From Bacteroidota bacterium (GTDB lineage: Bacteria > Bacteroidota > Bacteroidia > Chitinophagales > LD1), in the NCBI GenBank assembly GCA_040387015.1, contig JAZKEP010000044.1, positions 1 through 62,807 of the forward strand: DNA of 62,807 bases. The letters run 5' to 3'. Below the pieces are notes generated by a model. The model had not been told where the DNA came from. It made no database searches and saw only the letters and a program-made list of their open reading frames with translations. Made by a program: the position numbers and the translations under genes. Below, in pieces: positions 2,923 to 52,461 of this stretch. How positions within the stretch are numbered: position 1 is the first letter of the stretch; the number at the start of each line of letters is the position of its first letter.

Positions 2923-4437
2923 TCAGAACGCGGCCCTTAAAATCTGTTTCGTTATTTCTTCGCTTCCCCCATCCACCAGCTTCTGCAATAAAAACGGAGC
3001 CACCCCAATCACCACAATTCCGGCAATCAGAATCACAGCCGCCAACTTTTCATTCCACTCCGCATCACCAAACGCAACGGCTGTTTCACCGTGAACCGTC
3101 AACTGTGAACCGTCAACCTGCAACTCCCCCCACATCACCTTCCCCAGCGCCCTCAAAATATAAACTGCCGTCACCACTATACTAGCGCAAGCAGCGATTG
3201 TTGCTAAGCGATACCACGTATCTGCATTCTGCCACGCGCCCATAAACACCGTCATCTCGGCAGCAAAACCGCTGAAACCCGGCAAGCCCAGCGAACACAA
3301 ACCCGCAATAAAAAACACCGTGCCTATAAACGGAGTAACCTTCAGCAGCCCGCCCATCTGGCTCACCATGCGCGTGTGCGTGCGCTCATACAACATGCCA
3401 ATGGCAGCAAAGAAAAGAGCCGTCATCAAACCGTGACTCACCATCTGCATCACCGCACCGGTAATGCTGGTTTTCGTCAGCATGCCAATACCCAGCAACA
3501 CAAAGCCGCAGTGGCTCACCGATGAATACGCATTGATGTATTTCAAATCCTTCTGCATCATGGTAGCAAACGCGCCATACAAAATGGCAATAGAAGCCAG
3601 CAGAATAATCAGCCACTGATACTCATGTGCCGCTTCGGGCATCAGGTAAGTGGCCACGCGCAGACAACCATAGCCGCCCAGCTTCATCGAAATACCCGCT
3701 AAGAACATCGAAGCCGCAGTAGGCGCGCTGCTGTGTCCGTCAGGCACCCAGGTATGAAACGGAAACAGCGCCCCGAAAATTCCGAAACCCGCAAACAACA
3801 GCGGAAAGAAAAACCGTTGCTGCTCCACCGGTATATGCATATGGCTCAGCGCCACCAAATCAAACGTTGGTGTGCCGTTGTAAAAATAAATTCCAAGCAG
3901 GCCCACAAACACCAGCGCACTGCCGCCCATCAGCATCAGCGCCAGTTTATTCGCGCTGTATTCCTTGCGGCCGCTGCCCCAAATAGCTATCAGCAAAAAC
4001 TTCGGTATAACGGCCAGCTCCAGAAAGAAAAACATCACAAACAAATCGAGCGACATAAAAAACCCGTAAGCCCCTGCCGAAAGAAACAGCAGCAGAAAGA
4101 AAAACTCCTTCGTCATCTTCTCCACCTTCCAGCTCACCAGCACACCCGCCACCACCACCAGTGCCGTCAGCCCCATCATCGCCACCGAAATACCATCCAC
4201 CCCCACGTAGTATTGAATATTAAAAGCCGAAAACCACACCGCGCGCTGCTCAAACAAAAACTGCGCGGCTGCTCCTGCGTTGCGCGCGTTCACATACGCC
4301 AGCGTCAGCCATCCTACCAGCGCCAACTGCAATACCGCGCCAATCAGCGACACCACCCGCACTTGCTTTGCATCGCGACACGTTAACACCACCAGCGAGG
4401 TAAGAACCGGTAAGAGGATTAAGAGAGATAAATTCAT
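2923..4437 (-). CDS. nuoM: NADH-quinone oxidoreductase subunit M
   Basis: 504-aa polytopic protein with FPFHTWVPDGHSSAPTAASMFLAG and SSVSHCGFVLLG, typical of NuoM/ND4. Confidence 0.9.
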   Translation of the reverse strand: MNLSLLILLPVLTSLVVLTCRDAKQVRVVSLIGAVLQLALVGWLTLAYVNARNAGAAAQFLFEQRAVWFSAFNIQYYVGVDGISVAMMGLTALVVVAGVLVSWKVEKMTKEFFFLLLFLSAGAYGFFMSLDLFVMFFFLELAVIPKFLLIAIWGSGRKEYSANKLALMLMGGSALVFVGLLGIYFYNGTPTFDLVALSHMHIPVEQQRFFFPLLFAGFGIFGALFPFHTWVPDGHSSAPTAASMFLAGISMKLGGYGCLRVATYLMPEAAHEYQWLIILLASIAILYGAFATMMQKDLKYINAYSSVSHCGFVLLGIGMLTKTSITGAVMQMVSHGLMTALFFAAIGMLYERTHTRMVSQMGGLLKVTPFIGTVFFIAGLCSLGLPGFSGFAAEMTVFMGAWQNADTWYRLATIAACASIVVTAVYILRALGKVMWGELQVDGSQLTVHGETAVAFGDAEWNEKLAAVILIAGIVVIGVAPFLLQKLVDGGSEEITKQILRAAF

Positions 4438-4589
4438 TTCAATTTATTTTTATGATGATGGGGGTTGCTGAAATTTTTTACTCCGTTTAATTTTTAATCG
4501 AAAAAAATTTCATCACCGCGTTTTCCGTTACAATCTTTTTTGTCCTCGCAAAAACATCCACGCACAAAAAAGGATTTACACTACAATCG

Positions 4590-5183
4590 CTACCCCGAAC
4601 AGCCGTCTTGCTTCGGCAAAAACTCCCTTATCTTTTCAACAAAAGGCAAATACAATTCTTCATGTTTAGATAGAAAATCCTTAATTAGATTTTTTAGTTT
4701 ATCTAGATCAACCGTATACTTCCCTTCCTCTTCCACTAAATAGGACTCAACATCGATTTTAAACAACTCATCAAACGCATTACTTGCCGTAAGAAGTGAA
4801 AAGTGATCTTTTACATGTTGGTATAGAGACTTTGAGTCTAGTGCTTTCATTCTTAATGTAGCCCAATTATCCAAATCTTTCCCGCCACCATTATTTGAAG
4901 AAAAACAGGTTTCAAAATCTTTTTTTAAAAAAATCGCTTCAACGAAACAGCCATAAGGTATTACAGCCAGTTTTTCTGCTATACTCACTACCGGCTTGTC
5001 GGGTTCTTCTCCCTCTGGTATTAAAGGAATAGTTGCTCCATCGTAATCTCTCCAAGGATGTTTGGATGGATAAATAACGATTTCCTTAGTTGCCCCCATG
5101 ACCCCAAAATTCTTAAGGTTTAGTTCACGAGCTATTAGGTGACCAAGTTCATGAAAGAAAACTGTTTTTACAGCAGGATGCAT
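4590..5183 (-). CDS. hypothetical protein with N-terminal HExxH (HELGH) zinc-peptidase-like motif
   Basis: 197-aa ORF. FFHELGHLIAREL lies at residues 9-21 and the remainder has no recognisable motif. AT-rich. Confidence 0.45.
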   Translation of the reverse strand: MHPAVKTVFFHELGHLIARELNLKNFGVMGATKEIVIYPSKHPWRDYDGATIPLIPEGEEPDKPVVSIAEKLAVIPYGCFVEAIFLKKDFETCFSSNNGGGKDLDNWATLRMKALDSKSLYQHVKDHFSLLTASNAFDELFKIDVESYLVEEEGKYTVDLDKLKNLIKDFLSKHEELYLPFVEKIREFLPKQDGCSG

Positions 5184-5337: not shown

Positions 5338-6837
5338 TCAATTACATCCTTCCAAGCATTTCTCCTTACCAACTGAGCTGACGAAGTAAATGAATTTTTT
5401 ACCCTTCTCTTCTATACGGTAAAGATTGTTATTTATAAGTTCAATCATTCTTTCATCAGAATGAGAGAATACCTCAACACCTTCCATTGTAATTATGTTA
5501 CGAAATCTGAATGGTTGAAGTAGGTCTTCTGTTAATATATATTCGTTGCCATTTATGTCTTTGGTTAGCTTTCTATAAAGACAACTACCAATCATGGATA
5601 ACCCACCTAAAGGATTGGTAATAGAATCATAGATAGGAGAAATTTTTAGCTCACCTTTTCTATCAATAACACCAGTTCGCTTTGTTTTTGTATCGACTAC
5701 CTTATAATAATCATTAGAGAATTCTCCGATATTTAAGTATTTATCAGTTATTTTTTTTTCAAAATGGTCAATTATATAGTACACCACTCTGTTTAATGAA
5801 GTATCATAGCCTCCAATCAAAGCCGTACAACTATTATTTTCAAAGTTTGTCGCAAAAACATATTTAGTAGACCCCCAAGCACTTACGGAGTTGTCAATTT
5901 CTTCTGTAAGTTCAATATACCCAAACTTCATATTGAAAAAACCATAGGTTTGTTTTCGCCCCACCCGATATTTTCCACAAGATAGTGTATCGATTAAATC
6001 CCACCCTTCGGATATTATTTTATTGTCACGATTAATGAGATAAGATACGCCACTTGTCTTTTTTATAATTGAGCAGTAGTTTTGGTCAAGCGGTGTAAAT
6101 GATTCAACCTCGTGTAAAGTAGCAAGTTTTGTATTCTTCTTATCTATACAGTAAGCCCAATCAAATATTTTACACCAAGCTTTGCCTTTAGAAAATGCGC
6201 TCACTGAGTCATACTGGGCGGTAATTACTATATTTCCTTTAGTGTCAATAAAGCCGAATTTATTTTTGTATTTGAATGGTGCCATTCCTTCGCTGTAAGT
6301 ATATATGGTGTAGTCGCTATTGTCAATATATACACTATCAAACAAGACGTATCTGTTAACACTGTCACCTAAAATCCTTGCTCCGCCTTTGCGACATTTA
6401 AGGGTTTGGTTTTCTATACTGGCGGTTGTGAGTTTTTCATTCAATGCATTGGCATTGGATATTTTTGAAGAGTATTGGTCAACTAAAGCTCTGAGTATTT
6501 CACTAATAGAATCAGTATTAGATATAATAGCTTCAATGTTTTTTAACGCAGTAGTTTGTTCAATATGTTTCTTGACTTCTTCGTTTTTACGCGCATCCTG
6601 CAAAGTTAATATGGGTTGCAAGCTATCGGATACAGCCTTAAACAGATCTTTACTATTGCCTAAATCAACAATATTTCCGTTACCAATTAAATTGATATTG
6701 ATCACGCAAAGACTTCCGTTCGTGATATTTTGAATAGAGAAAATAGTATCTCTTGGTGAGACAGAAAAGCTCTTTAAAAACAACAAAATACTTGCAATAG
6801 ATAAGAGACAGGTTTTATTAATGTATTGTATTGCCAT
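5338..6837 (-). CDS. WG-repeat (KWG-type) protein with N-terminal hydrophobic segment and coiled-coil region
   Basis: Repeated F/YGFID.KGN..I...YD....F motifs (KFGFIDTKGNIVITAQYDSVSAFSKGKAW, TYGFFNMKFGYIEL, RTGVIDRKGELKISPIYDSI). N-terminus is CLLSIASILLFL. AT-rich. Confidence 0.6.
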   Translation of the reverse strand: MAIQYINKTCLLSIASILLFLKSFSVSPRDTIFSIQNITNGSLCVININLIGNGNIVDLGNSKDLFKAVSDSLQPILTLQDARKNEEVKKHIEQTTALKNIEAIISNTDSISEILRALVDQYSSKISNANALNEKLTTASIENQTLKCRKGGARILGDSVNRYVLFDSVYIDNSDYTIYTYSEGMAPFKYKNKFGFIDTKGNIVITAQYDSVSAFSKGKAWCKIFDWAYCIDKKNTKLATLHEVESFTPLDQNYCSIIKKTSGVSYLINRDNKIISEGWDLIDTLSCGKYRVGRKQTYGFFNMKFGYIELTEEIDNSVSAWGSTKYVFATNFENNSCTALIGGYDTSLNRVVYYIIDHFEKKITDKYLNIGEFSNDYYKVVDTKTKRTGVIDRKGELKISPIYDSITNPLGGLSMIGSCLYRKLTKDINGNEYILTEDLLQPFRFRNIITMEGVEVFSHSDERMIELINNNLYRIEEKGKKFIYFVSSVGKEKCLEGCN

Positions 6838-7174
6838 CTCCTATGATGTTAGTATTCTTTGTGTCCTTAGAATCCTTTGTCTTGTTGATTATACTTTTTG
6901 ACTGATGTATTGGTTTTGGAGCAGGAACTGGTTCGCTTTTTTTCAGGTCATTTAATTGGTTGCTCAATGCCATATTTGTTTGCTCAATATTCGATTTCTG
7001 CATTTTCAATTCTACATTTTCATTGGTCAATTTTTTATACTCGTCTATTTTAACGTATTGCCCGCTTGTTTGCAAAATACATTCCCGGAAAGTCCAACCT
7101 GTTGTAAGGCTCGGCACAACCATCAAAGCCACAGTCCACCATTTTAGCTGTCTAATTTCTTTAGGTATTTCCAT
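6818..7174 (-). CDS. small membrane-anchored coiled-coil protein (ORF track start 7264; ATG at 7174 preferred)
   Basis: MEIPKEIRQLKWWTVALMVVPSLTTGW is followed by a heptad-like KKLTNENVELKMQKSNIEQTNMALSNQLNDLKK. The 3' end overlaps the next ORF by 20 nt. Confidence 0.45.
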   Translation of the reverse strand: MEIPKEIRQLKWWTVALMVVPSLTTGWTFRECILQTSGQYVKIDEYKKLTNENVELKMQKSNIEQTNMALSNQLNDLKKSEPVPAPKPIHQSKSIINKTKDSKDTKNTNIIGDGNTIH

Positions 7175-7308
7175 TGAGTTGGTTGGTTTTTTGTGTCTCC
7201 CTAATCCTGTTTTTAAGCTTTTGGTGTTGTTACAAAACACCACCACCATCGCAATCACCCCCATAATAAACCAAATAGCAACGCCTGCACCTTTCCGCTT
7301 TCTGCGTT

Positions 7309-7671
7309 TTACTTCTTCAACTTCATCTTCGCCATCTCCACCAACTCCTTCAAATATTTATTCTCTTGTTCCATCAACTCCATCTTACGCTTCATCGCAT
7401 CCAACTCCGCATCTTTACCTTCATGCGGGTTTTGTATCGTTTCAGTATTCACCTTCTTCGGTACAAACAGCTCAAACAAATTGTATTTCAAAAAATCTCC
7501 TGCCGCAACCATCTCGCTTATCCGCCAATCCGTTCGTCTCAGCAGCTTATAAGCCGAGTCATTGCTCAGACCCATCGCATTAGCCAAATCAACTGCGGTC
7601 AGGCGTTTATCAAACAATAGTTTCTTCGCCACTTCATTTACTTTCGGTGTAGGATTCGTTATTTCTGCCAT
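7309..7671 (-). CDS. XRE-like helix-turn-helix protein with C-terminal coiled coil
   Basis: LTAVDLANAMGLSNDSAYKLLRR is HTH-like, followed by YNLFELFVP and the charged heptad tail DAMKRKMELMEQENKYLKELVEMAKMKLKK. Same layout as the protein at 34068..34469. Confidence 0.55.
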   Translation of the reverse strand: MAEITNPTPKVNEVAKKLLFDKRLTAVDLANAMGLSNDSAYKLLRRTDWRISEMVAAGDFLKYNLFELFVPKKVNTETIQNPHEGKDAELDAMKRKMELMEQENKYLKELVEMAKMKLKK

Positions 7672-7748
7672 GTTTTAGAGGTTTTATTGCAAAATAAAGC
7701 ACATTTCAGCCAAAGAATAACAAACTCACCTCTTCGCGAACAACATTT

Positions 7749-7983
7749 CCAATAACGCAAACTGCACTCACTATACCGCAAACCGTATATCCAATACCGC
7801 AATCTTCACAAACAATACTGCGAACTGCATATACAATACAACAAACTGCATCAACTATAAAGCAAACTTCACTCACTATATCCTGAACTTCACACCCAAT
7901 ACCGCTAACTTAACTCCCAATAACCCAATCTGCATTGCCAATACCGCAAACTGCACTCATGGTAGCGCGAACGCCATCGTCTG
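7749..7983. repeat. array A: about 11 head-to-tail degenerate 20-22 bp units, consensus CCAATACCGCAAACTGCACTCA
   Basis: Read directly. Units start at 7749, 7771, 7791, 7813, 7834, 7855, 7876, 7896, 7917, 7938 and 7960. Units 1 and 10 differ at one base. The array fills the gap between the nuoL stop (7984) and the HTH gene start (7671). Confidence 0.85.
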
Positions 7984-9924
7984 TCATGAAATAAACACAA
8001 AGGCAACAACCAATCCAATCACTCCTACCAAAAACCAAATAGCATACGCCTGCACCTTGCCACTTTGCCACACACTTAACTCATCGCTGCCGTCCTGCGC
8101 AAACATGCCGCCTGCATCTACCAAACCGTTCACCATATTTTTATCAATCCATGCCGCAGGCCTTCCAACCAGGTTAAAGAGGATGCGCTTCGTCACAAAC
8201 AAATACACCTCATCAATATAAAACTTGCGGTAAGCGCCCGCATACAAACCGCGCATAGCATCGGCAACACGCGCGGGCAAAGCACTCTCGCTTTTATACA
8301 TCACCAGCGCAATCAAAATTCCAATCAAGCCAAACGCAACCGGTGCAATGGCCATTTGCAAATGAAACTCGCTGTGCAGCGCTTCGCCATCGCTGCTCAC
8401 AAATTCTCCAAACGGAACAAAGCCCGTTACGATGGCCAGGACACCTAAAATTATCAGCGGCAACTTCATCGTAACTGGTGCTTCACCGTGATGATGTTCA
8501 TCGGCATGTCCGTGAACCACAAAATCTTTCTTCCAGAAAATAGAAAAGTAAAGCCGGAACATATAGAAAGCAGTCAGCCCCGCAGTAAACAGCGCCATGC
8601 CATAAATTAATTTGTTAGAATGAAAAGCAGCGGTGAGAATTTCTTCCTTACTAAAGAAACCACTGAGCGGAGGCACACCGGCAATCGCAAGGCACGCAAT
8701 CAAAAACGTAAGATGCGTCACTGGCATTTTCTTTCGCAGTCCGCCCATGTCGCCCATCTCATTCGAATGCACATAATGAATCACCGCGCCCGCACCGAGG
8801 AACAGCAACGCCTTAAACATGGCGTGTGTAAACAGGTGAAACATCGAAGCGGTAAAACCAAGTCCTTGCTCGCCATCGTAACCGCTCACACCCAACGCAA
8901 ACATCATATAACCGATTTGGCTCATGGTGCTATACGCCAGTACGCGCTTGATATCGGTTTGTGTGCAGGCAATCACTGCGGCAAACAGTGAAGACACCGC
9001 GCCCACATACGCCACCACCTCCAGCGCACCGGGGCACGAAAGCGCAAACACCGGAAACAAACGCGCCACTAAATAAACACCCGCCACCACCATGGTTGCC
9101 GCATGTATCAATGCCGAAACCGGAGTAGGACCTTCCATCGCATCGGGCAGCCAGATGTGCAACGGAAACATGGCGCTCTTTCCCGCACCGCCCATAAACA
9201 CAAGAAGCAATCCCCATGTAAGTGCGCTGATACCAAACAAGCCACCGGTGATAGCAGAATGTAATTGCGGAGAAGAAGAATCAGTCAAGCGTTGAATCAG
9301 AGTTGTGAAGTCAAGCGTCTCTGCATGAAAAGAAAGAATGAGAATGCCAATGAGAAAACCTAAATCGGCAAAGCGCGTAACGATGAATGCTTTTTTAGAA
9401 GCAGCCACCGCACTTGGTTTGTTGAAGTAATAACCGATAAGCAGAAACGATGAAACACCCACCAATTCCCAGAACATGTATATCTGAAAAATATTGGTGG
9501 ACAGCACCAAACCCAACATCGAAAAGGTAAACAGCGATAGGAAAGAATAATAAATAGAGAACCGTTCTTCGCCTTTCATATAGCCAAGCGAATAGATGTG
9601 CACCATCAACGAAACGAAAGTGACCACCACCAACATCATCACCGAAATAGGGTCGAGCAGCAAACCCATATCAATAGAAACACCGGGAGCAAATTGAAGC
9701 CAGGTAAATTTCAGCACTTCAACTTTCTGATAAACGCCATCCACTTTTCCTGAAACAAAAAAATAATTGTAAGCAGTCGACAACGACAACAATGCAGAAC
9801 CGGTTAGCGAAAGTGTGCCGATAATTCCTCCGCTCTTCGCAAAATATTTTTTACCGAACAAACCGAGCACAAGAAAACTTGCCAGTGGCAGAAGAGGAAT
9901 AAGAGCTATGATGATTGGTGACAT
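7984..9924 (-). CDS. nuoL: NADH-quinone oxidoreductase subunit L
   Basis: 646-aa polytopic protein with LHIWLPDAMEGPTPVSALIHAATMVVAGVYLVAR. Confidence 0.9.
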   Translation of the reverse strand: MSPIIIALIPLLPLASFLVLGLFGKKYFAKSGGIIGTLSLTGSALLSLSTAYNYFFVSGKVDGVYQKVEVLKFTWLQFAPGVSIDMGLLLDPISVMMLVVVTFVSLMVHIYSLGYMKGEERFSIYYSFLSLFTFSMLGLVLSTNIFQIYMFWELVGVSSFLLIGYYFNKPSAVAASKKAFIVTRFADLGFLIGILILSFHAETLDFTTLIQRLTDSSSPQLHSAITGGLFGISALTWGLLLVFMGGAGKSAMFPLHIWLPDAMEGPTPVSALIHAATMVVAGVYLVARLFPVFALSCPGALEVVAYVGAVSSLFAAVIACTQTDIKRVLAYSTMSQIGYMMFALGVSGYDGEQGLGFTASMFHLFTHAMFKALLFLGAGAVIHYVHSNEMGDMGGLRKKMPVTHLTFLIACLAIAGVPPLSGFFSKEEILTAAFHSNKLIYGMALFTAGLTAFYMFRLYFSIFWKKDFVVHGHADEHHHGEAPVTMKLPLIILGVLAIVTGFVPFGEFVSSDGEALHSEFHLQMAIAPVAFGLIGILIALVMYKSESALPARVADAMRGLYAGAYRKFYIDEVYLFVTKRILFNLVGRPAAWIDKNMVNGLVDAGGMFAQDGSDELSVWQSGKVQAYAIWFLVGVIGLVVAFVFIS

Positions 9925-11385: not shown

Positions 11386-12462
11386 TTAAAAATTCACACC
11401 GCCTTCTTTCAGTTTCTCGGTTTGTTCAGCAACAGCAAGAGCATCAATCATTTCGCCAATGTTGCCGTCCATAAAAACTGTGAGATTATATATGGAAAGA
11501 TTAATGCGGTGGTCGGTAATTCTTCCCTGAGGATAATTGTAGGTGCGAATTTTTGCCGAACGGTCACCGGTGCTAACAAGTGTTTTTCTGCGCGCTGCAA
11601 TCTCATCTTCATGTTTTCGAACGGCAGATTCATAAATTTTTGTCTTCAACATTTTCATTGCGTGTTCACGGTTCTTATGCTGCGAACGCTCCTGTTGACA
11701 CTCCACGACAGTATTGGTGGGAATGTGCGTTAAACGAACGGCACTCTCTGTTCTGTTTACGTGCTGTCCACCAGCTCCTGACGCGCGAAACACATCCAGC
11801 CTGATATCTGCAGGATTGATGTACACTTCTACTTCATCAGCTTCTGGCAATACTGCAACAGTCACTGCAGAAGTATGCACTCGTCCTTTCGCTTCTGTTT
11901 CAGGAATACGTTGTACACGATGCACACCGCTTTCAAACTTCAATTTGCCGTAAACATTCTCTCCGGTAATTTCCAATACGACTTCTTTATAACCGCCAGC
12001 ACTTCCTTCGCTCGCGCTTGCCATTGCAACCTTCCATCCAAGCGTTTCGCAATAACGAGTGTACATACGAAAAAGGTCTCCGACAAAAATACTTGCCTCA
12101 TCTCCTCCTGTTCCTGCGCGAATTTCAACCAACACATTACGCTCATCTTCGGGTTCTTTAGGAACGAGTAACGTCTTTAGTCCTTCTTCTATTTTCTCTT
12201 TATCGGTTTCTAGTTGCGCTAAATCATTTTTTGCCAAATCGCGAAACTCTTCATCACTCTCAGTAGAAATAATCTGTTTGTTCGTTTCAATATTACCAAG
12301 CACGTTCCGATACTCATCATACAGCTTCACTACTTTCTCCAACTCACGATACTCTTTGTTGAGTTGAGTAAAGCGCTTCATGTCACTCATAGTGCTGGGA
12401 TCACTGAGTGTTTTACCTACTTCAATAAATTTTCCCTTTATATTTTCTAACTGACTAAACAT
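11386..12462 (-). CDS. prfA: peptide chain release factor 1
   Basis: SGAGGQHVNRTESAVRLTHIPT (GGQ motif) and RVQRIPETE (PxT tripeptide position). 358 aa. Confidence 0.9.
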   Translation of the reverse strand: MFSQLENIKGKFIEVGKTLSDPSTMSDMKRFTQLNKEYRELEKVVKLYDEYRNVLGNIETNKQIISTESDEEFRDLAKNDLAQLETDKEKIEEGLKTLLVPKEPEDERNVLVEIRAGTGGDEASIFVGDLFRMYTRYCETLGWKVAMASASEGSAGGYKEVVLEITGENVYGKLKFESGVHRVQRIPETEAKGRVHTSAVTVAVLPEADEVEVYINPADIRLDVFRASGAGGQHVNRTESAVRLTHIPTNTVVECQQERSQHKNREHAMKMLKTKIYESAVRKHEDEIAARRKTLVSTGDRSAKIRTYNYPQGRITDHRINLSIYNLTVFMDGNIGEMIDALAVAEQTEKLKEGGVNF

Positions 12463-12553
12463 TTCTTTTGACTGTGATTTTTCGAGGTGCTAAATTAAAA
12501 ATTAAGAGGAGGGAAGAGGCAATGTCTCTTCTTTAGGAAGTATGAAAGAAACG

Positions 12554-13387
12554 CTAATACTTATAGAAATCGACTTTCTCCTTCTTCAGAATTCCAAGAC
12601 GGTTCTTTTCCAACACAGCCAAAGAGACATCTGTTGTATCGGGAAGGGGAAGTGATTTCAATTCGAGCGTGAGTGGATTATACGAATTGAGTTGATTGTC
12701 TTTGAAAAAAACAATTTCATCCTGCAGTACCTGAAATTTTGTTAGCCCCTTCAACGGGATTGTTTTCGAATAGCTTCCGAAAATGTCAAACACCATAATA
12801 CCGATAGCAGTGTCATTTAAATACACTTTCCGATCGCGCTCAATCATAAAATTTGGATTAGGGGCTTTTTCAAGTAGCACATTTAATTGTTGACTTTCTA
12901 AAAACGTTTTTCCGGATTCATCAATCTTCTTTAGCTTAAAATCAATGTTGTCATAAAACCAGATTCGTCCGTCAGTAGAAGATGATATGGCGGAAATATT
13001 TTGATATCCCAGTTGGAAAAAATTATAGGTATTAATGGGTGCAAGAAATTTGTCTGTGATAACCACAGTCATAAAATCAGGGTAAAACACCAATATCTTC
13101 ATCGGATTGCTTACGTCCAGCATTCCTATTTTGCCATACCTGAACTCTTCATAGCGGTTAAGAAATTTTCCCTCCGGAGAAAACTTTAGAATTCCATTGT
13201 TTGAAGCAGAATAAAAATTGCTGAAATTATCTACGGCAATAATGCTCGCCTTTGTTTCGAAAGTATTAAGAAATGAAAAGGATGTAGTAGAAATAAAAAG
13301 GATACATGACAATAAGCACAAGGCAATAGTCAATACAAATCGCTTTGTATTGGACAGCGAACTACGAACCATGAATTTCCAACTCAT
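12554..13387 (-). CDS. hypothetical membrane-anchored/secreted protein
   Basis: 277-aa ORF with N-terminal hydrophobic segment FVLTIALCLLSCILFI and beta-rich remainder. Has a 4-nt overlap with lpxH upstream. Confidence 0.5.
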   Translation of the reverse strand: MSWKFMVRSSLSNTKRFVLTIALCLLSCILFISTTSFSFLNTFETKASIIAVDNFSNFYSASNNGILKFSPEGKFLNRYEEFRYGKIGMLDVSNPMKILVFYPDFMTVVITDKFLAPINTYNFFQLGYQNISAISSSTDGRIWFYDNIDFKLKKIDESGKTFLESQQLNVLLEKAPNPNFMIERDRKVYLNDTAIGIMVFDIFGSYSKTIPLKGLTKFQVLQDEIVFFKDNQLNSYNPLTLELKSLPLPDTTDVSLAVLEKNRLGILKKEKVDFYKY

Positions 13388-14145
13388 TTCTTATAATATT
13401 TCAGTTCCATTTTTTCTCCATCAAACACAACATAGCTGTTATACTCAAGCCAATCACCAGTGTTCAGATAACGGCTTTTTCCGTTCAATTGTACATCAAG
13501 CGGCAAGTGTCGGTGGCCGAAAACAAAAAAATCGAAATGTTCTTTTTTCAAAATATCTTTCGAAAATTGAACGAGCCATTCTTTGTTTTCATCTCTGAAC
13601 TCTTCAGCATCTTTTCTTTTTCCTTCATTTCCAAATCGGCTTTCGTATGAAAAATAATTGGCAATACGCGCGCCAATATCAGGATGCAGCCAACGAAACA
13701 AAAACTGACAAATAGGATTTGAGAAAACCGCTTTAATAAATTTATATCCATGGTCACCGGGCCCTAAGCCGTCACCATGACCGATGTAAAATTTCTTTCC
13801 GTTGAATTCACGTTGAATCGGCTGCTTGTAAACTTTAGCTCCTAACTCCTTCTCGAGATAACCAAACATCCACAAATCATGATTGCCGGTAAAAATGTGA
13901 ACTGGGATTCCCGCATCGCATAACTCGGCAATCTTTCCCTGCACCCGTACAAAGCCTTTCGGAATTACCGTTTTGTATTCGTGCCAGAAGTCGAAGATGT
14001 CGCCAATGATGAAAATTTCTCTTGCATCCGCTTTAATTTCATCCAGCCATTGAACAAAAAGTTTTTCCCTTTGTAAACTGGAAGCATGGTCGGGCGTACC
14101 GAGGTGAAGATCAGATGCGAAATAGATTTTTCCCGAGGATGACAT
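13384..14145 (-). CDS. lpxH: UDP-2,3-diacylglucosamine diphosphatase (calcineurin-like metallophosphoesterase)
   Basis: Motifs FASDLHLG, IIGDIFDFW, FTGNHDLW, IGHGD and FGHRH. Length is LpxH-like. Confidence 0.75.
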   Translation of the reverse strand: MSSSGKIYFASDLHLGTPDHASSLQREKLFVQWLDEIKADAREIFIIGDIFDFWHEYKTVIPKGFVRVQGKIAELCDAGIPVHIFTGNHDLWMFGYLEKELGAKVYKQPIQREFNGKKFYIGHGDGLGPGDHGYKFIKAVFSNPICQFLFRWLHPDIGARIANYFSYESRFGNEGKRKDAEEFRDENKEWLVQFSKDILKKEHFDFFVFGHRHLPLDVQLNGKSRYLNTGDWLEYNSYVVFDGEKMELKYYKK

Positions 14146-14174
14146 CGGGCTAAAAATAGAATTATTGCGGGAGT

Positions 14175-14981
14175 TTAAGGGCGCAGAGAGGGTGGAATAA
14201 CTTCATCCACGAGGAACACGTAAACATCTTCTGTCCCTTCGCTGTTTAAAATCAACCGTTGCTTATCGTAGAAGTGGCCCTTGTTACAAGAACCGAGTTT
14301 AATGATGGATGGCAATTCACCCTTGTTAAGTGCGGCAAATTTTTCAAGACCTTCTGGTTCACTTCCTGCAAGGTGGGCGATGTCGGTAATTATGATATGC
14401 GTTTTCGGAAAGCAATGTAATCTTCTGCGGGATGCCTGTTTAGGATTTAAGATAATAGTTCCATCATCGGCAATTAAATTTTCGCAGAGAGAAATAGCTG
14501 CGTCTGAATTTTCGATAGTGAACCCTATAGCACCTTTTTGAAAATTACTTTCGCAAAAGGCATCTTTAATTTCATTTTCCCAGCAGAAAACATGTGACCA
14601 TTTGTTTTCCAGTTTTAGCATCCGCACATTTTCAATCGCAGCTTTCATGCTCTCACAAAAAACAAACTTACCTCCCGCAGAAATAAATTTTGTAGCAAAG
14701 CGGATATCTAAGTCTTTTTCATTGGGCAAAGTATATGTGGGTGCCGTTACCGGCACTGTCCGCAATGAAATTTCATTTTCGGTTACGCTTATATCACTCA
14801 CCCGCGATGTGTAATTGAATCCTATAGTAGCAGGGGTTTCCTTCCCAGTGTTTGTTCCTATAGTCCTTCCGACAAACAAAGGAGGGTGATTAACTTCCTC
14901 ACCGCCACCTGATTTTTCCGAATACGAAAAAACATTCTTCATCTTATTAAAAAATCCAACTCGGTGTTGCTCAGAGTGCAT
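14175..14981 (-). CDS. LUD domain (LutC/YkgG-like) protein
   Basis: C-terminal region ISLCENLIADDGTIILNPKQASRRRLHCFPKTHIIIT resembles the LUD family core. The N-terminal extension is uncharacterised. Confidence 0.5.
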   Translation of the reverse strand: MHSEQHRVGFFNKMKNVFSYSEKSGGGEEVNHPPLFVGRTIGTNTGKETPATIGFNYTSRVSDISVTENEISLRTVPVTAPTYTLPNEKDLDIRFATKFISAGGKFVFCESMKAAIENVRMLKLENKWSHVFCWENEIKDAFCESNFQKGAIGFTIENSDAAISLCENLIADDGTIILNPKQASRRRLHCFPKTHIIITDIAHLAGSEPEGLEKFAALNKGELPSIIKLGSCNKGHFYDKQRLILNSEGTEDVYVFLVDEVIPPSLRP

Positions 14982-22937: not shown

Positions 22938-23147
22938 GGCGAATCCTACTTCAAGCGTATCTAACTATACCTTAAAGGTTCGAAACTAATCATCAATTAT
23001 TCCTAACCGTTCTTTCAAAGTGGCTAACTATAGTTACGTTGTATATATCTTTACTTTTGAAGTGGGTACCTATACTTCTGAAGCGGGTATCTACACCTTG
23101 CTAGTATATAATTGTATCCTTTTCTTATATTCGGAAGGTAATTTCTG
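22938..23147. repeat. array B: about 10 strongly degenerate 21-bp units in register
   Basis: Units 7/8 (gggtacctatacttctgaagc / gggtatctacaccttgctagt) and units 2/5 (atctaactataccttaaaggt / ggctaactatagttacgttgt) each match at 13 of 21 positions at exact 21-bp multiples. Unit 3 contains TCGAAACTAAT, resembling the array A core. Confidence 0.4.
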
Positions 23148-23203: not shown

Positions 23204-23458
23204 ATGAAAAAGCTTACTGCCGAGGAAAAAGCCAAATTTATAACCCGACCGATGAAACGCCAAGGGTATGTCCGCACTTTACTAATGAATATGAAACCCG
23301 GGGACATCATTTTGCTGGAACTAGTGGAGTGGAAATGGAAAACAAAGTCGCCTTCCTTTTTATGCAGGCGGGTAGAAGAAGATAATACCGGATGGAAATT
23401 TGAGTGTGAAAAAATTGTACAGGGCGGTAGCGGATGGATTATAACGCGGACAAAATAA
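23204..23458 (+). CDS. hypothetical small protein
   Basis: 84-aa ORF with no recognised motif. Confidence 0.4.
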   Translation: MKKLTAEEKAKFITRPMKRQGYVRTLLMNMKPGDIILLELVEWKWKTKSPSFLCRRVEEDNTGWKFECEKIVQGGSGWIITRTK

Positions 23459-31736: not shown

Positions 31737-31922
31737 ATAAAAAACGGGGAGCGTTACCCACGCCCCCCGTCCATACTCACGGTTGATAAACCCATCACCA
31801 CAAAAGGCAACCGCTTTCTTTTTACTAACACACCTAAACCATGAAGTCAGAAATGGACTCTGACATCTTATAAACGTTACATACGAAGAAACCTTGCATC
31901 TGGATTTGTGAAGATTAGTTAA
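31737..31922 (-). ncRNA. candidate structured sRNA, tandem unit 1 (includes its upstream box)
   Basis: Box TTAACTAATCTTCACA (31922-31907). Hairpin 1 GTCAGA/TCTGAC (31864-31846). Hairpin 2 CGGTTG/CAACCG with loop CCTTTTGTGGTGATGGGT (31814-31779). GC-rich stem plus T-run terminator (31770-31737). Confidence 0.6.
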
Positions 31923-31931
31923 TGGCTGAAA

Positions 31932-32116
31932 GAATAAAAAAACGGGTGGTATTTGCATACCACCCGCCATACTCGCGGTTGATTACCCATCACCACAAAA
32001 GGCAACCGCTTTTTTATTAACACACCTAAAAAACCATGAGTCAGAAATGAATTCTGACAATTATATAACGCTATATCCGTGCCATTTGTTTTATGCCTGT
32101 TGTGAAGATTAGTTAA
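31932..32116 (-). ncRNA. candidate structured sRNA, tandem unit 2
   Basis: Identical 16-mer box (32116-32101). TGGCACGGATATAGC (32084-32070). Hairpin 1 at 32058-32040. Same invariant loop (32002-31986). Terminator CGGGTGGTAT-GCAA-ATACCACCCG plus T7. Confidence 0.65.
32070..32084 (-). promoter_or_regulatory. sigma-54-type -24/-12 element of unit 2 (TGGCACGGATATAGC)
   Basis: Matches TGGCAC-N5-TTGC at all but one position with correct GG/GC spacing. The -12 GC lies about 12 nt upstream of the first base of hairpin 1. Confidence 0.5.
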
Positions 32117-32121
32117 GCGGG

Positions 32122-32297
32122 GCAAAAATAAAACGGGCGGCATTTACATGCCACCCGCTTATCGCGGCTGTACCCATCACCACAAAAGGCAGCCGCATTT
32201 TACTAACACACTTAAACCCATGAAAATGCTTAAGCATCACAAACATAACATCAAACTTTCGAAATTGTTGCATTTAGTGTTGCAAACAAAAGTTAAT
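32122..32297 (-). ncRNA. candidate structured sRNA, tandem unit 3
   Basis: Only TTAACT of the box is kept. Hairpin 1 is replaced by ATGCTT/AAGCAT. Hairpin 2 stem is GCGGCTG/CAGCCGC (compensated) with the same invariant loop (32189-32173). Terminator CGGGTGGCAT-GTAA-ATGCCGCCCG plus T-run. Confidence 0.6.
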
Positions 32298-33719: not shown

Positions 33720-33813
33720 GGTATGTGTGTTTTTAAATGATGAAATAATTTGATGACACAAATGAAAACACTTGCTGCCCTTCGCGCAATAGCAAAAGCC
33801 CCTTCCAAAGGGC

Positions 33814-34004
33814 ATATAGGCTGTTTCGTTACAGCTATAGGAAATTAAGTGAATGGTATAGGCTGTTTACCTACATGTTTCGGCCGTTCCATTAAACGTT
33901 CAGGCTGTTTCGTAGCCTATATAGGCAATTTAGTTACAGCCATCGGCTGTTTCGTAACGCTTATAGGAAATTTAATTACAACTATAGGTTGTTTCGAATA
34001 TGAA
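33814..34004. repeat. array C: 9 head-to-tail 20-22 bp units, two alternating subtypes (42-bp superperiod)
   Basis: ATAGGCTGTTTCGTTACAGCT-type units (33816, 33858, 33901, 33942, 33984) alternate with ATAGGAAATTTAATTACAACT-type units (33837, 33963; intermediate forms at 33879 and 33921). Located in the divergent intergenic region between 33719(-) and 34068(+). Confidence 0.85.
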
Positions 34005-34067: not shown

Positions 34068-34469
34068 ATGCTGGCATTCAACTTACGAAACGTTTTAAAG
34101 ATGAAAGGAATTGACGAACCTTATCCCTGGCTACGCAAGCGCGCTATCAGCGATGATATTATCAAGCGCTATTTAAGCGGCAAGGTGGTAAAGGTGGATA
34201 TGCGCCACCTCGAAATTTTTTGCTACGACCTTAATCTGCGGCCCAACGACTTTTTTATCTGGCAGCCTGACAGGCATACCCGCGATATTGAAAATCACGC
34301 GCTGCAGGAAATTCGCAGCGATCAGCCACTGCCCGATGTGGACAGCATTGCTAAAAAACTTTCAACCAAATCGCTGCGCAAGCTGGAAGAAGCCGCGCGC
34401 AAAATTGCCGAAGAGGAAATTGAAGAACGCAAAAAGAACATTGAGGCGAAGAAGAAAGGGAAGAAGTAG
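34068..34469 (+). CDS. XRE-like helix-turn-helix protein with charged C-terminal coiled coil
   Basis: LRNVLKMKGI...ISDDIIKRYLSG...LEIFCYDLNLRPNDFFIWQP, then KLEEAARKIAEEEIEERKKNIEAKKKGKK. Same architecture as 7309..7671. Confidence 0.55.
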   Translation: MLAFNLRNVLKMKGIDEPYPWLRKRAISDDIIKRYLSGKVVKVDMRHLEIFCYDLNLRPNDFFIWQPDRHTRDIENHALQEIRSDQPLPDVDSIAKKLSTKSLRKLEEAARKIAEEEIEERKKNIEAKKKGKK

Positions 34470-51583: not shown

Positions 51584-51705
51584 AAGAGGGCGCGAAGGTA
51601 GTGCTAGATTTTGATAATTACAGGATAGCCGTCAGAAATTGTGTAAAACATCAGGTTCTTGTTTTAGAAGACCATTTTGTATTTTTGGTGGAAAGGAAAA
51701 GTCCT

Positions 51706-52461
51706 ATGTCAGAAACAACAAATTTCCAGTTGGCTTTAGATAACGGTCATTTAAACCGAATTATAGCCCTACTGATTGAGCAAAATGATGGTTTGAAGAA
51801 GGAAAATGAGTGGTTGAAAATGCATATAGGGCTGAAAGAGCAAGGTATGCCCGATGCGCAAATACATGAGGCGTTTACAGCGTTCTGGAAGTCCCACATG
51901 CAAACTAATGTAGGACTAACCGAAGCTAGACAATCCTATGTGCAAATGCATGTAGGGCTTACTGAGCTTAGTCAATCCAACCCACAAATGCGTGTAGGGC
52001 ATCCTGAATTTAATCAATCCCACATGCAAACTGATGTAGGGCAAACCGAAGTTAGACAACCCTACGTGCAAATGCAGGTAGGATTATCTAAGCAGAGTTT
52101 ACCTACCACGCAAATGCATGTGGGGCAAACCACAGAAAATAGCCCACTTCCGGCAGTTATTCAGCCGGACAGCCAGTTAATTTCGGCCCTGGTTAAAACT
52201 CTTAAAGAGGCCGGCTTTAAACATGCGGAGGTTTCTACAGTGCGCAACGCTGCCACGTTGATGTTTCATTTCTATAACAAGGGCGGGGGAAGTTATCAGG
52301 AATTGAAAAAAATAACGAACCTTTCTATGGGCGGCCTAAGCAAGTTCATGACCTCCTTTAGAAGAAGAGGATTGATAAAGCGCTATGCGTTTCAAAAATT
52401 TGAGCTTACACCGCATGGCCTAAACCTGCTGCAGCAGGCGTATAGTAAAGTGAAAAAATAA
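51706..52461 (+). CDS. repeat-containing DNA-binding-like protein: N-terminal zipper, 14-aa tandem repeats, C-terminal winged-helix-like domain
   Basis: LIEQNDGLKKENEWLK, then 6-8 repeats of the ..QM.VG.TE..QS type, then SYQELKKITNLSMGGLSKFMTSFRRRGLIKR. The track start (GTG 51601) is less likely than ATG 51706. Confidence 0.5.
   Translation: MSETTNFQLALDNGHLNRIIALLIEQNDGLKKENEWLKMHIGLKEQGMPDAQIHEAFTAFWKSHMQTNVGLTEARQSYVQMHVGLTELSQSNPQMRVGHPEFNQSHMQTDVGQTEVRQPYVQMQVGLSKQSLPTTQMHVGQTTENSPLPAVIQPDSQLISALVKTLKEAGFKHAEVSTVRNAATLMFHFYNKGGGSYQELKKITNLSMGGLSKFMTSFRRRGLIKRYAFQKFELTPHGLNLLQQAYSKVKK
51811..52145 (+). repeat. array D: 8 units of 42 bp (2 x 21), inside the ORF above
   Basis: Unit boundaries at 51811, 51853, 51895, 51937, 51979, 52021, 52063 and 52104. 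Core is CAAA(C/T)..ATGTAGGGC ... AGACAATCC. Confidence 0.8.

Follow-up and report, generated by a model that had tools for sequence, protein, structure and literature searches.

A phased repeat array upstream of a small helix-turn-helix gene

In a 62,807-nucleotide stretch of DNA from a Bacteroidota bacterium (Chitinophagales, LD1; contig JAZKEP010000044.1, positions 1 to 62,807), referred to below as the window, we analysed a tandem array of 21-bp repeats, array A, together with the adjoining gene for a small helix-turn-helix (HTH) protein, HTH-A. The locus headed by this array sits within the nuo operon on a 120-kb contig. Its leading elements, in the sense of the HTH gene, are as follows:

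7743..7973, minus strand: array A, 11 strong 21-bp units without an indel, gene-sense consensus AGTTTGCGGTATTGGnnnTGC
7690..7714, minus strand: promoter-like block, with TTTG at 7711-7714 and TATTTTG at 7690-7696, about 19-25 nucleotides (nt) before the ATG
7309..7671, minus strand: HTH-A, 120 amino acids (aa), with a Cro/C1-type HTH, a flexible linker and a leucine-zipper-like C-terminal helix

Chaining of the units in gene-sense register placed the 11 strong units from 7973 down to 7743 with every spacing exactly 21, and weaker in-phase units flank them on both sides, extending to the nuoL stop. Tandem Repeats Finder (TRF) reported a period of 21 over 7750-7959 (10.0 copies, 66% matches), and a repeat search of the window recovered 10 copies from 7735 to 7972 with a start-to-start spacing of 21 throughout. 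In the 400 nt upstream of the HTH-A gene, autocorrelation gave a lag-21 match fraction of 0.52 (z = 10.2 versus shuffles) and no signal at lag 10/11. The 17-mer consensus GCAGTTTGCGGTATTGG has seven matches with three or fewer mismatches in the window, all of them within array A, where chance would yield 0.26.

An earlier note, made from the sequence alone, had placed the array at 7749-7983; the sequence there matches its description, and TRF, the repeat search and autocorrelation confirm the periodicity. The array does abut the nuoL stop codon (7984-7986), the HTH gene does begin with an ATG at 7671, 77 bp from 7749, a single base distinguishes the units at 7749-7770 and 7938-7959 as that note says, and no open reading frame (ORF) spans the whole array. 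The unit length of 20-22 bp given in that note was too loose, as all units measure 21 bp.

Two familiar explanations of such a repeat were rejected. A 56-aa ORF overlaps eight units of the array; the conserved unit positions (0-4, 7-9 and 12-15) lack 3-periodicity and stop codons break the array in the sense frames, so the unit is not coding. A CRISPR array was likewise dismissed, the units being contiguous, 60-70% alike and without spacers, and Rfam showing no CRISPR repeat in the region.

Conservation of the array across related loci

Relatives of HTH-A number 17 in a collection of 5.8 billion sequences (52-73% identity), and contigs of genomes and metagenomes yielded further ones. The DNA upstream was readable at 14 distinct loci carrying a relative at 52-100% identity (loci are numbered with the prefix L). 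All 14, distributed over at least six genomic contexts, have a periodic array just upstream of the promoter-like block. The period is 21 bp in 13 of them (z = 6.4 to 13.1) and 42 bp in the degraded copy at L018, and every array comprises 9-13 strong units.

The spacing of these units is exact. Spacings of 18-24 carried no penalty in the analysis, and likeness between units is no more than 60-70%; even so, each of the 103 intervals between strong units is a multiple of 21 (89 of 21, 11 of 42, and one each of 63, 84 and 105). In the loci measured, 55-58 bp separate the last core from the -7-like box, and in most loci the block TTTGGCTGAAAnnGCTTTATTTTG, or its TTTATTTTG part, stands at a constant distance from the ATG. 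This block may resemble the Bacteroidota -33/-7 promoter consensus. The orthologous arrays of L001 and L025 differ in length by one whole unit. Even the distant relative at L028, only 21% identical to HTH-A, has 12-13 units in 21-bp phase upstream.

A sliding scan of 318 kb at lags 21 and 42 found arrays upstream of HTH-A relatives and at five other places only, namely arrays B, C and D of the window, a second one in L007 and the one preceding the gene of the distant member at L028. Control lags of 17, 19, 20, 22, 23, 25, 40 and 44 in the same scan yielded nothing.

These data bear directly on whether the array is a neutral, functionless minisatellite produced by slippage. Units within one array are more alike than units of other arrays, which points to concerted evolution, and the pair L001/L025 documents gain or loss of a whole unit, both as slippage would predict. 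Not one single-base indel occurs among the 103 spacings despite 30-40% unit divergence, however; the array is kept at 14 loci down to 52% protein identity and again beside the 21%-identical relative; and unit number and promoter distance stay constant. We therefore regard a neutral origin as scarcely credible, the least probable of the explanations considered here.

The degraded copy is a paralogue in the same metagenome-assembled genome as L014 and L015 (L018, 462-946 and 917-1150). Its tblastn matches cover residues 43-120 only, the coiled-coil part appears to continue in another frame, and its 42-bp palindromic array (CATTGTATCAATACAATG) runs into the position expected for the N-terminus.

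The protein encoded beside the array

The AlphaFold2 (AF2) model of HTH-A has a predicted local distance difference test score (pLDDT) of 77.5, rising to about 90 over residues 11-60, and comprises five helices at 11-68, a low-confidence linker at 75-83 and a long helix at 83-119. Foldseek matched its N-terminal domain to SinR, CapH, DdrO, C.Esp1396I and 434 Cro, with SinR closest (probability 1.0; target-normalised TM-score up to 0.77; identity 15-25%; E about 1e-2), and the model displays the five-helix HTH fold of Cro/C1. No Pfam or NCBIfam model scores above threshold for HTH-A, which reaches 15.4 bits against HTH_26/HTH_3 where the cut-off is 22. In the wider family, 14 of the 30 aligned members match HTH_26 at E up to 0.01 (best 1.9e-8).

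An exhaustive profile search extended the family to 156 clusters at 50% identity. Wide-family members are 105-135 aa long and share the HTH, an NFF motif and a LEQENxYLKE layout, and the C-terminal ENKYLKELVEMAKMKLK is invariant in the family. An asparagine at the heptad "a" position is a feature of dimeric leucine zippers, and on a heptad reading Asn104 of HTH-A would occupy just such a position; HTH-A is probably a parallel dimer.

PADLOC defence models and PHROGs returned nothing meaningful for HTH-A. No relatives were found at the protein or DNA level in IMG/VR, GenBank phages or PLSDB, and a phage or plasmid origin was rejected on this ground; tblastn and blastn searches of 72,556 plasmids gave no match.

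Unit cores and protein variants

Pooling of 57 units from seven arrays revealed TATTG at positions 0-4 (74-89%), G at 8 and AGTT at 12-15, with the last five positions free. Each unit thus consists of a conserved face of roughly 16 bp (TATTG..AGT..AGTT) and a free spacer of 5 bp; this short core is all that the arrays have in common, and the remainder is array-specific. In L014, L015 and L016 the core is CAATAG, that is, the TATTG core inverted in place with flanks that keep their orientation, and in L017 and L021 it is GCTTTyGnGAAA.

The core variants accompany variants of the protein. Arrays with TATTG adjoin genes for proteins with ...DLAxAM...SNDSAYKLLRR, those with CAATAG adjoin proteins with "GR" in helix 2, and the GCTTT arrays of L017 and L021 adjoin proteins with GWSYD(A/S)GYKLLKR, a WSYD helix variant of the otherwise nearly invariant recognition helix SNDSAYKLLRR. 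As judged from these sequences, the pairing of core and helix fits an array that is read by the adjacent protein.

The in-place inversion of the core in L014-L016 fits recognition of double-stranded DNA rather than RNA, and it matters for the suggestion that the array works as RNA, as a segment of a nuoL read-through or antisense transcript acting, for example, as a protein sponge or Rho loading site. The array is probably transcribed, since the minus strand holds no terminator-like site between nuoL and the array, or anywhere between nuoL and nuoM. Its sense-strand composition is strongly skewed (C 10%, G 33%), and an antisense RNA would be C-rich and unstructured. Against these points, L014-L016 carry the core in the opposite orientation to the gene, a divergent upstream gene in L003, L007 and L015 provides no read-through there, array A shows no fold signal (z = -1.05 and -0.33) and no match to an Rfam family in a scan of the window, and exact double-helical phasing would be meaningless for RNA. 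An RNA role thus appears very improbable.

A probable docking platform for HTH-A

Collectively, these observations lead us to read array A as the cognate multi-site docking platform of the protein encoded downstream, a phased operator or iteron-like array, and we assign this reading a probability of roughly 0.55. A spacing of 21 bp amounts to two turns of the helix and so puts all 11 sites on the same face of a DNA segment of about 230 bp. The zipper-linked HTH domains would occupy neighbouring same-face sites cooperatively, and bound HTH-A units may build one continuous nucleoprotein complex that ends near the -33-like box of the gene's own promoter. Such a complex would determine the expression of both the HTH gene and the variable cargo that follows. 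Where an island lies co-directionally within an operon, as here after nuoL, it could also gate host transcription reading in; with no terminator-like site in its way, transcription leaving nuoL would meet the complex.

The retention of phase at every spacing despite the low likeness of the units suggests selection on phase and speaks for a docking platform. Several points weigh against it. Array and gene are neighbours and are inherited together, so that common descent confounds the covariation of core and protein, which covers about three clades. L027 and L029, distant or marginal family members, have no array. Conversely, the 21/42-bp arrays that lack an HTH-A gene (B, C, D and the second one in L007) leave room for a general array-forming or array-binding process. 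Eleven sites reaching out to 300 bp upstream go far beyond the needs of autoregulation, and the strong units do not reach the core promoter, which makes simple steric repression unlikely. The options that remain for a docked complex are activation, upstream wrapping and a roadblock to read-through.

The island inside the nuo operon

Array A and the HTH-A gene head a 3.5-kb island that separates nuoL from nuoM. The further features of this region are:

7984..9924, minus strand: nuoL, 646 aa; Pfam Proton_antipo_M (1.2e-80) and Proton_antipo_N
6818..7264, minus strand: cargo gene 1, 148 aa, with a coiled-coil segment and no family assigned
5338..6837, minus strand: cargo gene 2, a WG-repeat protein of 499 aa; Pfam WG_beta_rep (2.4e-17); GC content 33-36%
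4590..5183, minus strand: cargo gene 3, 197 aa, with an HELGH (HExxH) motif and no Pfam family match
4460..4612, minus strand: right-end module, consisting of CGGCTGTTCGGGG, then Flavo-1, then a conserved tail ending CAGCAACCCCC
4510-4598, minus strand: Flavo-1 (RF01705), 52 bits (gathering score 42), downstream of cargo gene 3 and ahead of nuoM
2923..4437, minus strand: nuoM, 504 aa, NCBIfam TIGR01972 NDH_I_M (6.3e-127), resuming 22 nt past the island

The island has a GC content of 33-36%, versus 42-54% for the nuo genes. Pfam and NCBIfam scans of its ORFs gave no match to a recombinase family, and no recombinase is listed among the called genes of the related loci. In L014, nuoL is likewise directly followed by an array; NuoL of the window is 88% identical to that of L014, and HTH-A 61%.

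Modules of this kind follow nuoL in the window, L014 and L021, lie between nuoC and nuoD in L001 and L025, and lie between TauD and a TP_methylase gene in L003, L007, L012 and L020; in L022 the TP_methylase side alone is seen, as the contig ends within the array. Additional modules occupy sites other than these nuo and TauD/TP_methylase junctions. A literature search for reports of nuo insertions or of 21-bp arrays in Bacteroidota turned up nothing relevant.

HTH-A has no conserved partner downstream, and an all-against-all BLASTP of 15 cargo proteins gave no match. The cargo of related islands includes a MntA/HepT pair, a trypsin-like protease and an ORF6N protein, and cargo gene 1 shows no similarity to the cargo of other islands. 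The HELGH of cargo gene 3 is a zinc-peptidase-like motif, in a gene without a conserved counterpart in other islands. Peptidases of the ImmA/IrrE type are common partners of XRE repressors, and DdrO is among the fold matches of HTH-A.

Two further features of L001 concern its nuo region. Runs of the heptamer ATTGCGG (4.6-4.7 copies at 7634-7666, 8358-8389, 9323-9354 and 9723-9754) come after the nuoC stop and after each inserted gene of the island, and two genes of the 23S_rRNA_IVP family stand between nuoD and nuoH (12386-12769) and between nuoH and nuoI (13891-14292). In this lineage, small foreign genes seem to land in the nuo operon quite generally.

Flavo-1 at the right end

Flavo-1 is the sole Rfam family in the whole window. 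In L015, L001, L014 and L025 it recurs at 46.6-59.5 bits on the HTH strand at the 3′ end of the island, and the 175 kb scanned hold no Flavo-1 beyond these four loci and the window. The additional copies are:

L014, 9099-9207: Flavo-1
L025, 5035-5126: Flavo-1
L001, 10874-10986: Flavo-1
L015, 6763-6912: Flavo-1

Flavo-1 thus marks the 3′ end of every cargo-bearing island headed by the array and HTH gene, always on the same strand, and loci with little or no cargo are without it. The right-end module is near-identical at nuoL|nuoM (window and L014) and at nuoC|nuoD (L025), its aligned tail ending CAGCARCCCCC; in L001 the Flavo-1 part is retained and the tail is different. Because the tail is common to different junctions and the sequence past it is site-specific, the tail is part of the island, and in the window the island's right edge falls at about 4460.

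Flavo-1 is recorded as an orphan motif (PMC2864571, PMC9723704) that runs sense or antisense to transcripts in Flavobacterium (PMC9723704). At the island 3′ end it exceeds the gathering score in five loci, yet it is broader than the module and distinct from the array itself. That Flavo-1 might be specific to the module was rejected on five genuine copies in viral contigs (L031-L035) with no array or HTH gene nearby, so the link between module and Flavo-1 runs one way only. Its boxes GATTGTAGTGGAAA and GATTGGAACGGAAAGC were also considered as extra HTH-A sites. They resemble units of L025 and L001, yet they are unchanged in L014, where the array core is CAATAG; as they do not covary with the array core, this idea was dropped.

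The structure of the island raises the question of whether the array forms one end of a mobile cassette, a multi-site end comparable to transposon ends or excisionase site arrays. A recombinase, a transposase or an accessory factor whose gene lies elsewhere would bind there, and HTH-A might play a directionality or architectural part, as P2 Cox, Apl and RdfS do. Several findings are consistent with this explanation. The island is discrete, with the array as its left end and Flavo-1 plus tail as its right end; it occupies precisely the interval from one gene's stop to the next gene's start, and it has no recombinase of its own. Two different nuo junctions share one right-end tail, the cargo is unrelated between islands, and the 88% identity of NuoL contrasts with the 61% of HTH-A. 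Oligomeric small HTH proteins that coat attachment (att) regions are known (PMC11963761). However, arrays occur without cargo or Flavo-1 in L003, L007, L016, L017 and L022, no integrase or transposase was seen at any locus, the junctions show no terminal inverted or direct repeats or target duplications, and the fixed distance between array and promoter points to transcription control. Such a cassette end is therefore unlikely, though it is the strongest competitor of a docking platform for HTH-A.

The islands do invite a broader, tentative proposal. Array, HTH-zipper gene, variable cargo and Flavo-1 with its tail might together represent an unrecognised class of compact, recombinase-less gene cassette in Bacteroidota, with the protein-coated array as its 5′ gate. 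Such a cassette would sit with base-level precision, and in the direction of the host genes, between neighbours in strongly expressed housekeeping operons (nuoL|nuoM, nuoC|nuoD) and ride on the transcription of the host operon, and Flavo-1 could serve as its 3′ end or hand-back element. We consider this doubtful on present evidence, though if true it would give the orphan Flavo-1 its first functional context.

Comparison with known repeat-array systems

From plasmids and phages, direct-repeat arrays that a small protein encoded next to them binds are familiar as centromeres, iterons and operators. Array A and its XRE-zipper family resemble known systems of repeat array and binding protein and are a member of none. 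One precedent for the proposed docking is StbA/stbS of R388, in which a small HTH protein binds ten direct repeats in its own operon's promoter without a dedicated, plasmid-encoded nucleoside triphosphatase (NTPase) partner (bioRxiv 10.1101/2022.04.29.490116); autoregulation and cooperative binding to direct repeats are features of StbA itself. The stbDR region has 9-bp units with an 11-bp period in two sets of five, whereas array A has a 21-bp period, forms one block and is chromosomal. StbA is plasmid-borne and serves plasmid segregation and conjugation control, and its fold, described as homeodomain-like or PadR-like, sets it apart by description from the Cro/C1 fold of HTH-A.

The P2 C repressor, another precedent, is likewise a small HTH dimer on non-palindromic direct repeats two turns (22 nt) apart, and it bends DNA (PMC1904263, PMC2995052). 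P2 C is a phage protein with two half-sites that overlap the early promoter, whereas array A has 9-13 units upstream of the promoter and no phage context.

SinR-type XRE repressors bind a few inverted or tandem sites and are not known to bind a strictly phased 11-unit array. SinR (PDB 1b0n, 3zkc), CapH and DdrO, the best structural matches, share with HTH-A the Cro/C1 five-helix HTH and a C-terminal helical multimerisation part; unlike these proteins, the HTH-A family has the specific ENKYLKELVEMAKMKLK zipper.

Plasmid iterons are typically spaced about 22 bp apart. Iterons with their Rep proteins, and ParR/parC of R1, are similar in presenting one-face direct-repeat arrays beside the gene of the binding protein, parC having 2 x 5 iterons around its promoter (PMC2241845). 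No Rep initiator adjoins array A and no Rep family was matched in Pfam or NCBIfam; no AT-rich unwinding region or DnaA boxes were noticed beside it, in an inspection that included no dedicated scan. Integron gene cassettes are a poor comparison too, as no recombinase was found among the scanned ORFs of the island or the called genes of related loci, and the 3′ element is Flavo-1.

This kinship of layout makes it necessary to weigh whether the array could be a site for DNA pairing or a kind of centromere, comparable to those of the StbA/stbS, ParR/parC, omega or KfrA systems. The HTH-zipper protein would then coat it so as to position, pair or handcuff DNA more than to regulate transcription. 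As in a partition centromere, array A consists of direct repeats in the promoter of the binding protein's operon; about ten such repeats before a small DNA-binding gene is the arrangement of stbS/StbA (bioRxiv 10.1101/2022.04.29.490116) and parC/ParR (PMC2241845), unit number is constant, and a coiled-coil tail could bridge DNA. The array is carried on no plasmid or extrachromosomal replicon, however: it is chromosomal, single-copy and within housekeeping operons, where a 3.5-kb island has no evident need for partition. A partition NTPase of the ParM, ParA or TubZ type is absent from the island and from every related locus, and relatives are lacking in the 72,556 plasmids and in the phage and viral collections. 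We hold such a role to be improbable.

Array C and other arrays

Array C (33809-33997) consists of nine units in exact 21-bp phase, with TATAGGCTGTTTCGTTACAGC alternating with TATAGGAAATTTAATTACAAC in a 42-bp super-period, and ends 72 bp before a gene (34068-34469) for a 133-aa HTH_26 protein with a long C-terminal helix, HTH-C. HTH-C has one homologue in the searched collection, on a contig that stops 21 bp upstream of the gene.

The earlier note had treated arrays A and C as two pairings with the same regulator type. The broad architecture that it saw in both proteins, an HTH_26-like N-terminus and a long C-terminal helix, is indeed there, but no homology was found by BLASTP, which gave a 13-residue chance match only, or by profile comparison (hhalign probability 0.5% with alignment A1 and 0.2% with A2). 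The argument from two pairings is thus not supported, and the suggested comparison of recognition helices with the GCAAAC and CGAAAC cores lacks a homologous frame. Made within the HTH-A family instead, this comparison shows core variants accompanying helix variants, confounded by descent. The label "XRE-like" for HTH-A is borne out by the Foldseek matches of its AF2 model. The conclusion that array and gene form a functional module rather than a chance pairing also stands, on better grounds than the note had: an array lies beside every orthologue with readable upstream DNA, which speaks strongly against the absence elsewhere that the note named in advance as refuting it.

Further repeats were recorded in the window and related loci. 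A more degenerate phased 21-bp array at 22945-23112, with units like CTATACTTnnAAGnGGGTAnC, ends about 74 bp before an 84-aa ORF (23204-23458, plus strand) without a Pfam match, in the same geometry as arrays A and C. At 51892-52127, an array with a 42-bp period and the palindrome CCTACrTGCAAATGCATGTAGG lies inside an ORF (51601-52461) whose C-terminus weakly matches a winged helix; the repeat may encode 14-aa units, or the array may precede a shorter winged-HTH gene. In L007, the segment 15853-16184 (equivalent to L010 10051-10382) holds about ten units of 21 bp (CTTTGTATATGCTCAAAGGnn), every one of them containing an inverted repeat, between two convergent genes with no HTH-A relative adjoining. 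About 1.6 kb from array C, a 194-bp tandem repeat (31766-32216) has 2.4 copies with 78% matches.

The shared geometry of the window arrays also bears on the idea that array A acts through DNA shape or a general host factor (phased bending, an upstream promoter element or nucleation of a nucleoid protein) and is not read by HTH-A. Arrays A, C and D have different cores in the same phase 72-77 bp upstream of small genes, and TAT(T/A)G-like cores recur in all three, as this idea would have it. Yet the clade cores differ markedly (TATTG, CAATAG, GCTTTyGnGAAA) and accompany protein variants, and lag 10/11 is blank here, whereas intrinsic bends usually consist of A-tracts with a 10-11 bp period. An effect of shape or a host factor is accordingly about as improbable as a centromere-like site, perhaps slightly more so.

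Implications

In these arrays, a phase of two helical turns is kept without an indel while the unit sequences turn over, an unusually clean case of selection on spacing and not on sequence. The partner is an uncharacterised XRE-zipper family of 156 clusters without a Pfam or NCBIfam model, and the pair heads small foreign islands in the complex I operon that end in Flavo-1, a motif without a function since 2010. If binding of HTH-A to its array is confirmed, the pair would offer a compact natural model of cooperative, phase-dependent assembly on DNA, and it could reveal how essential operons take up accessory genes and still stay intact.

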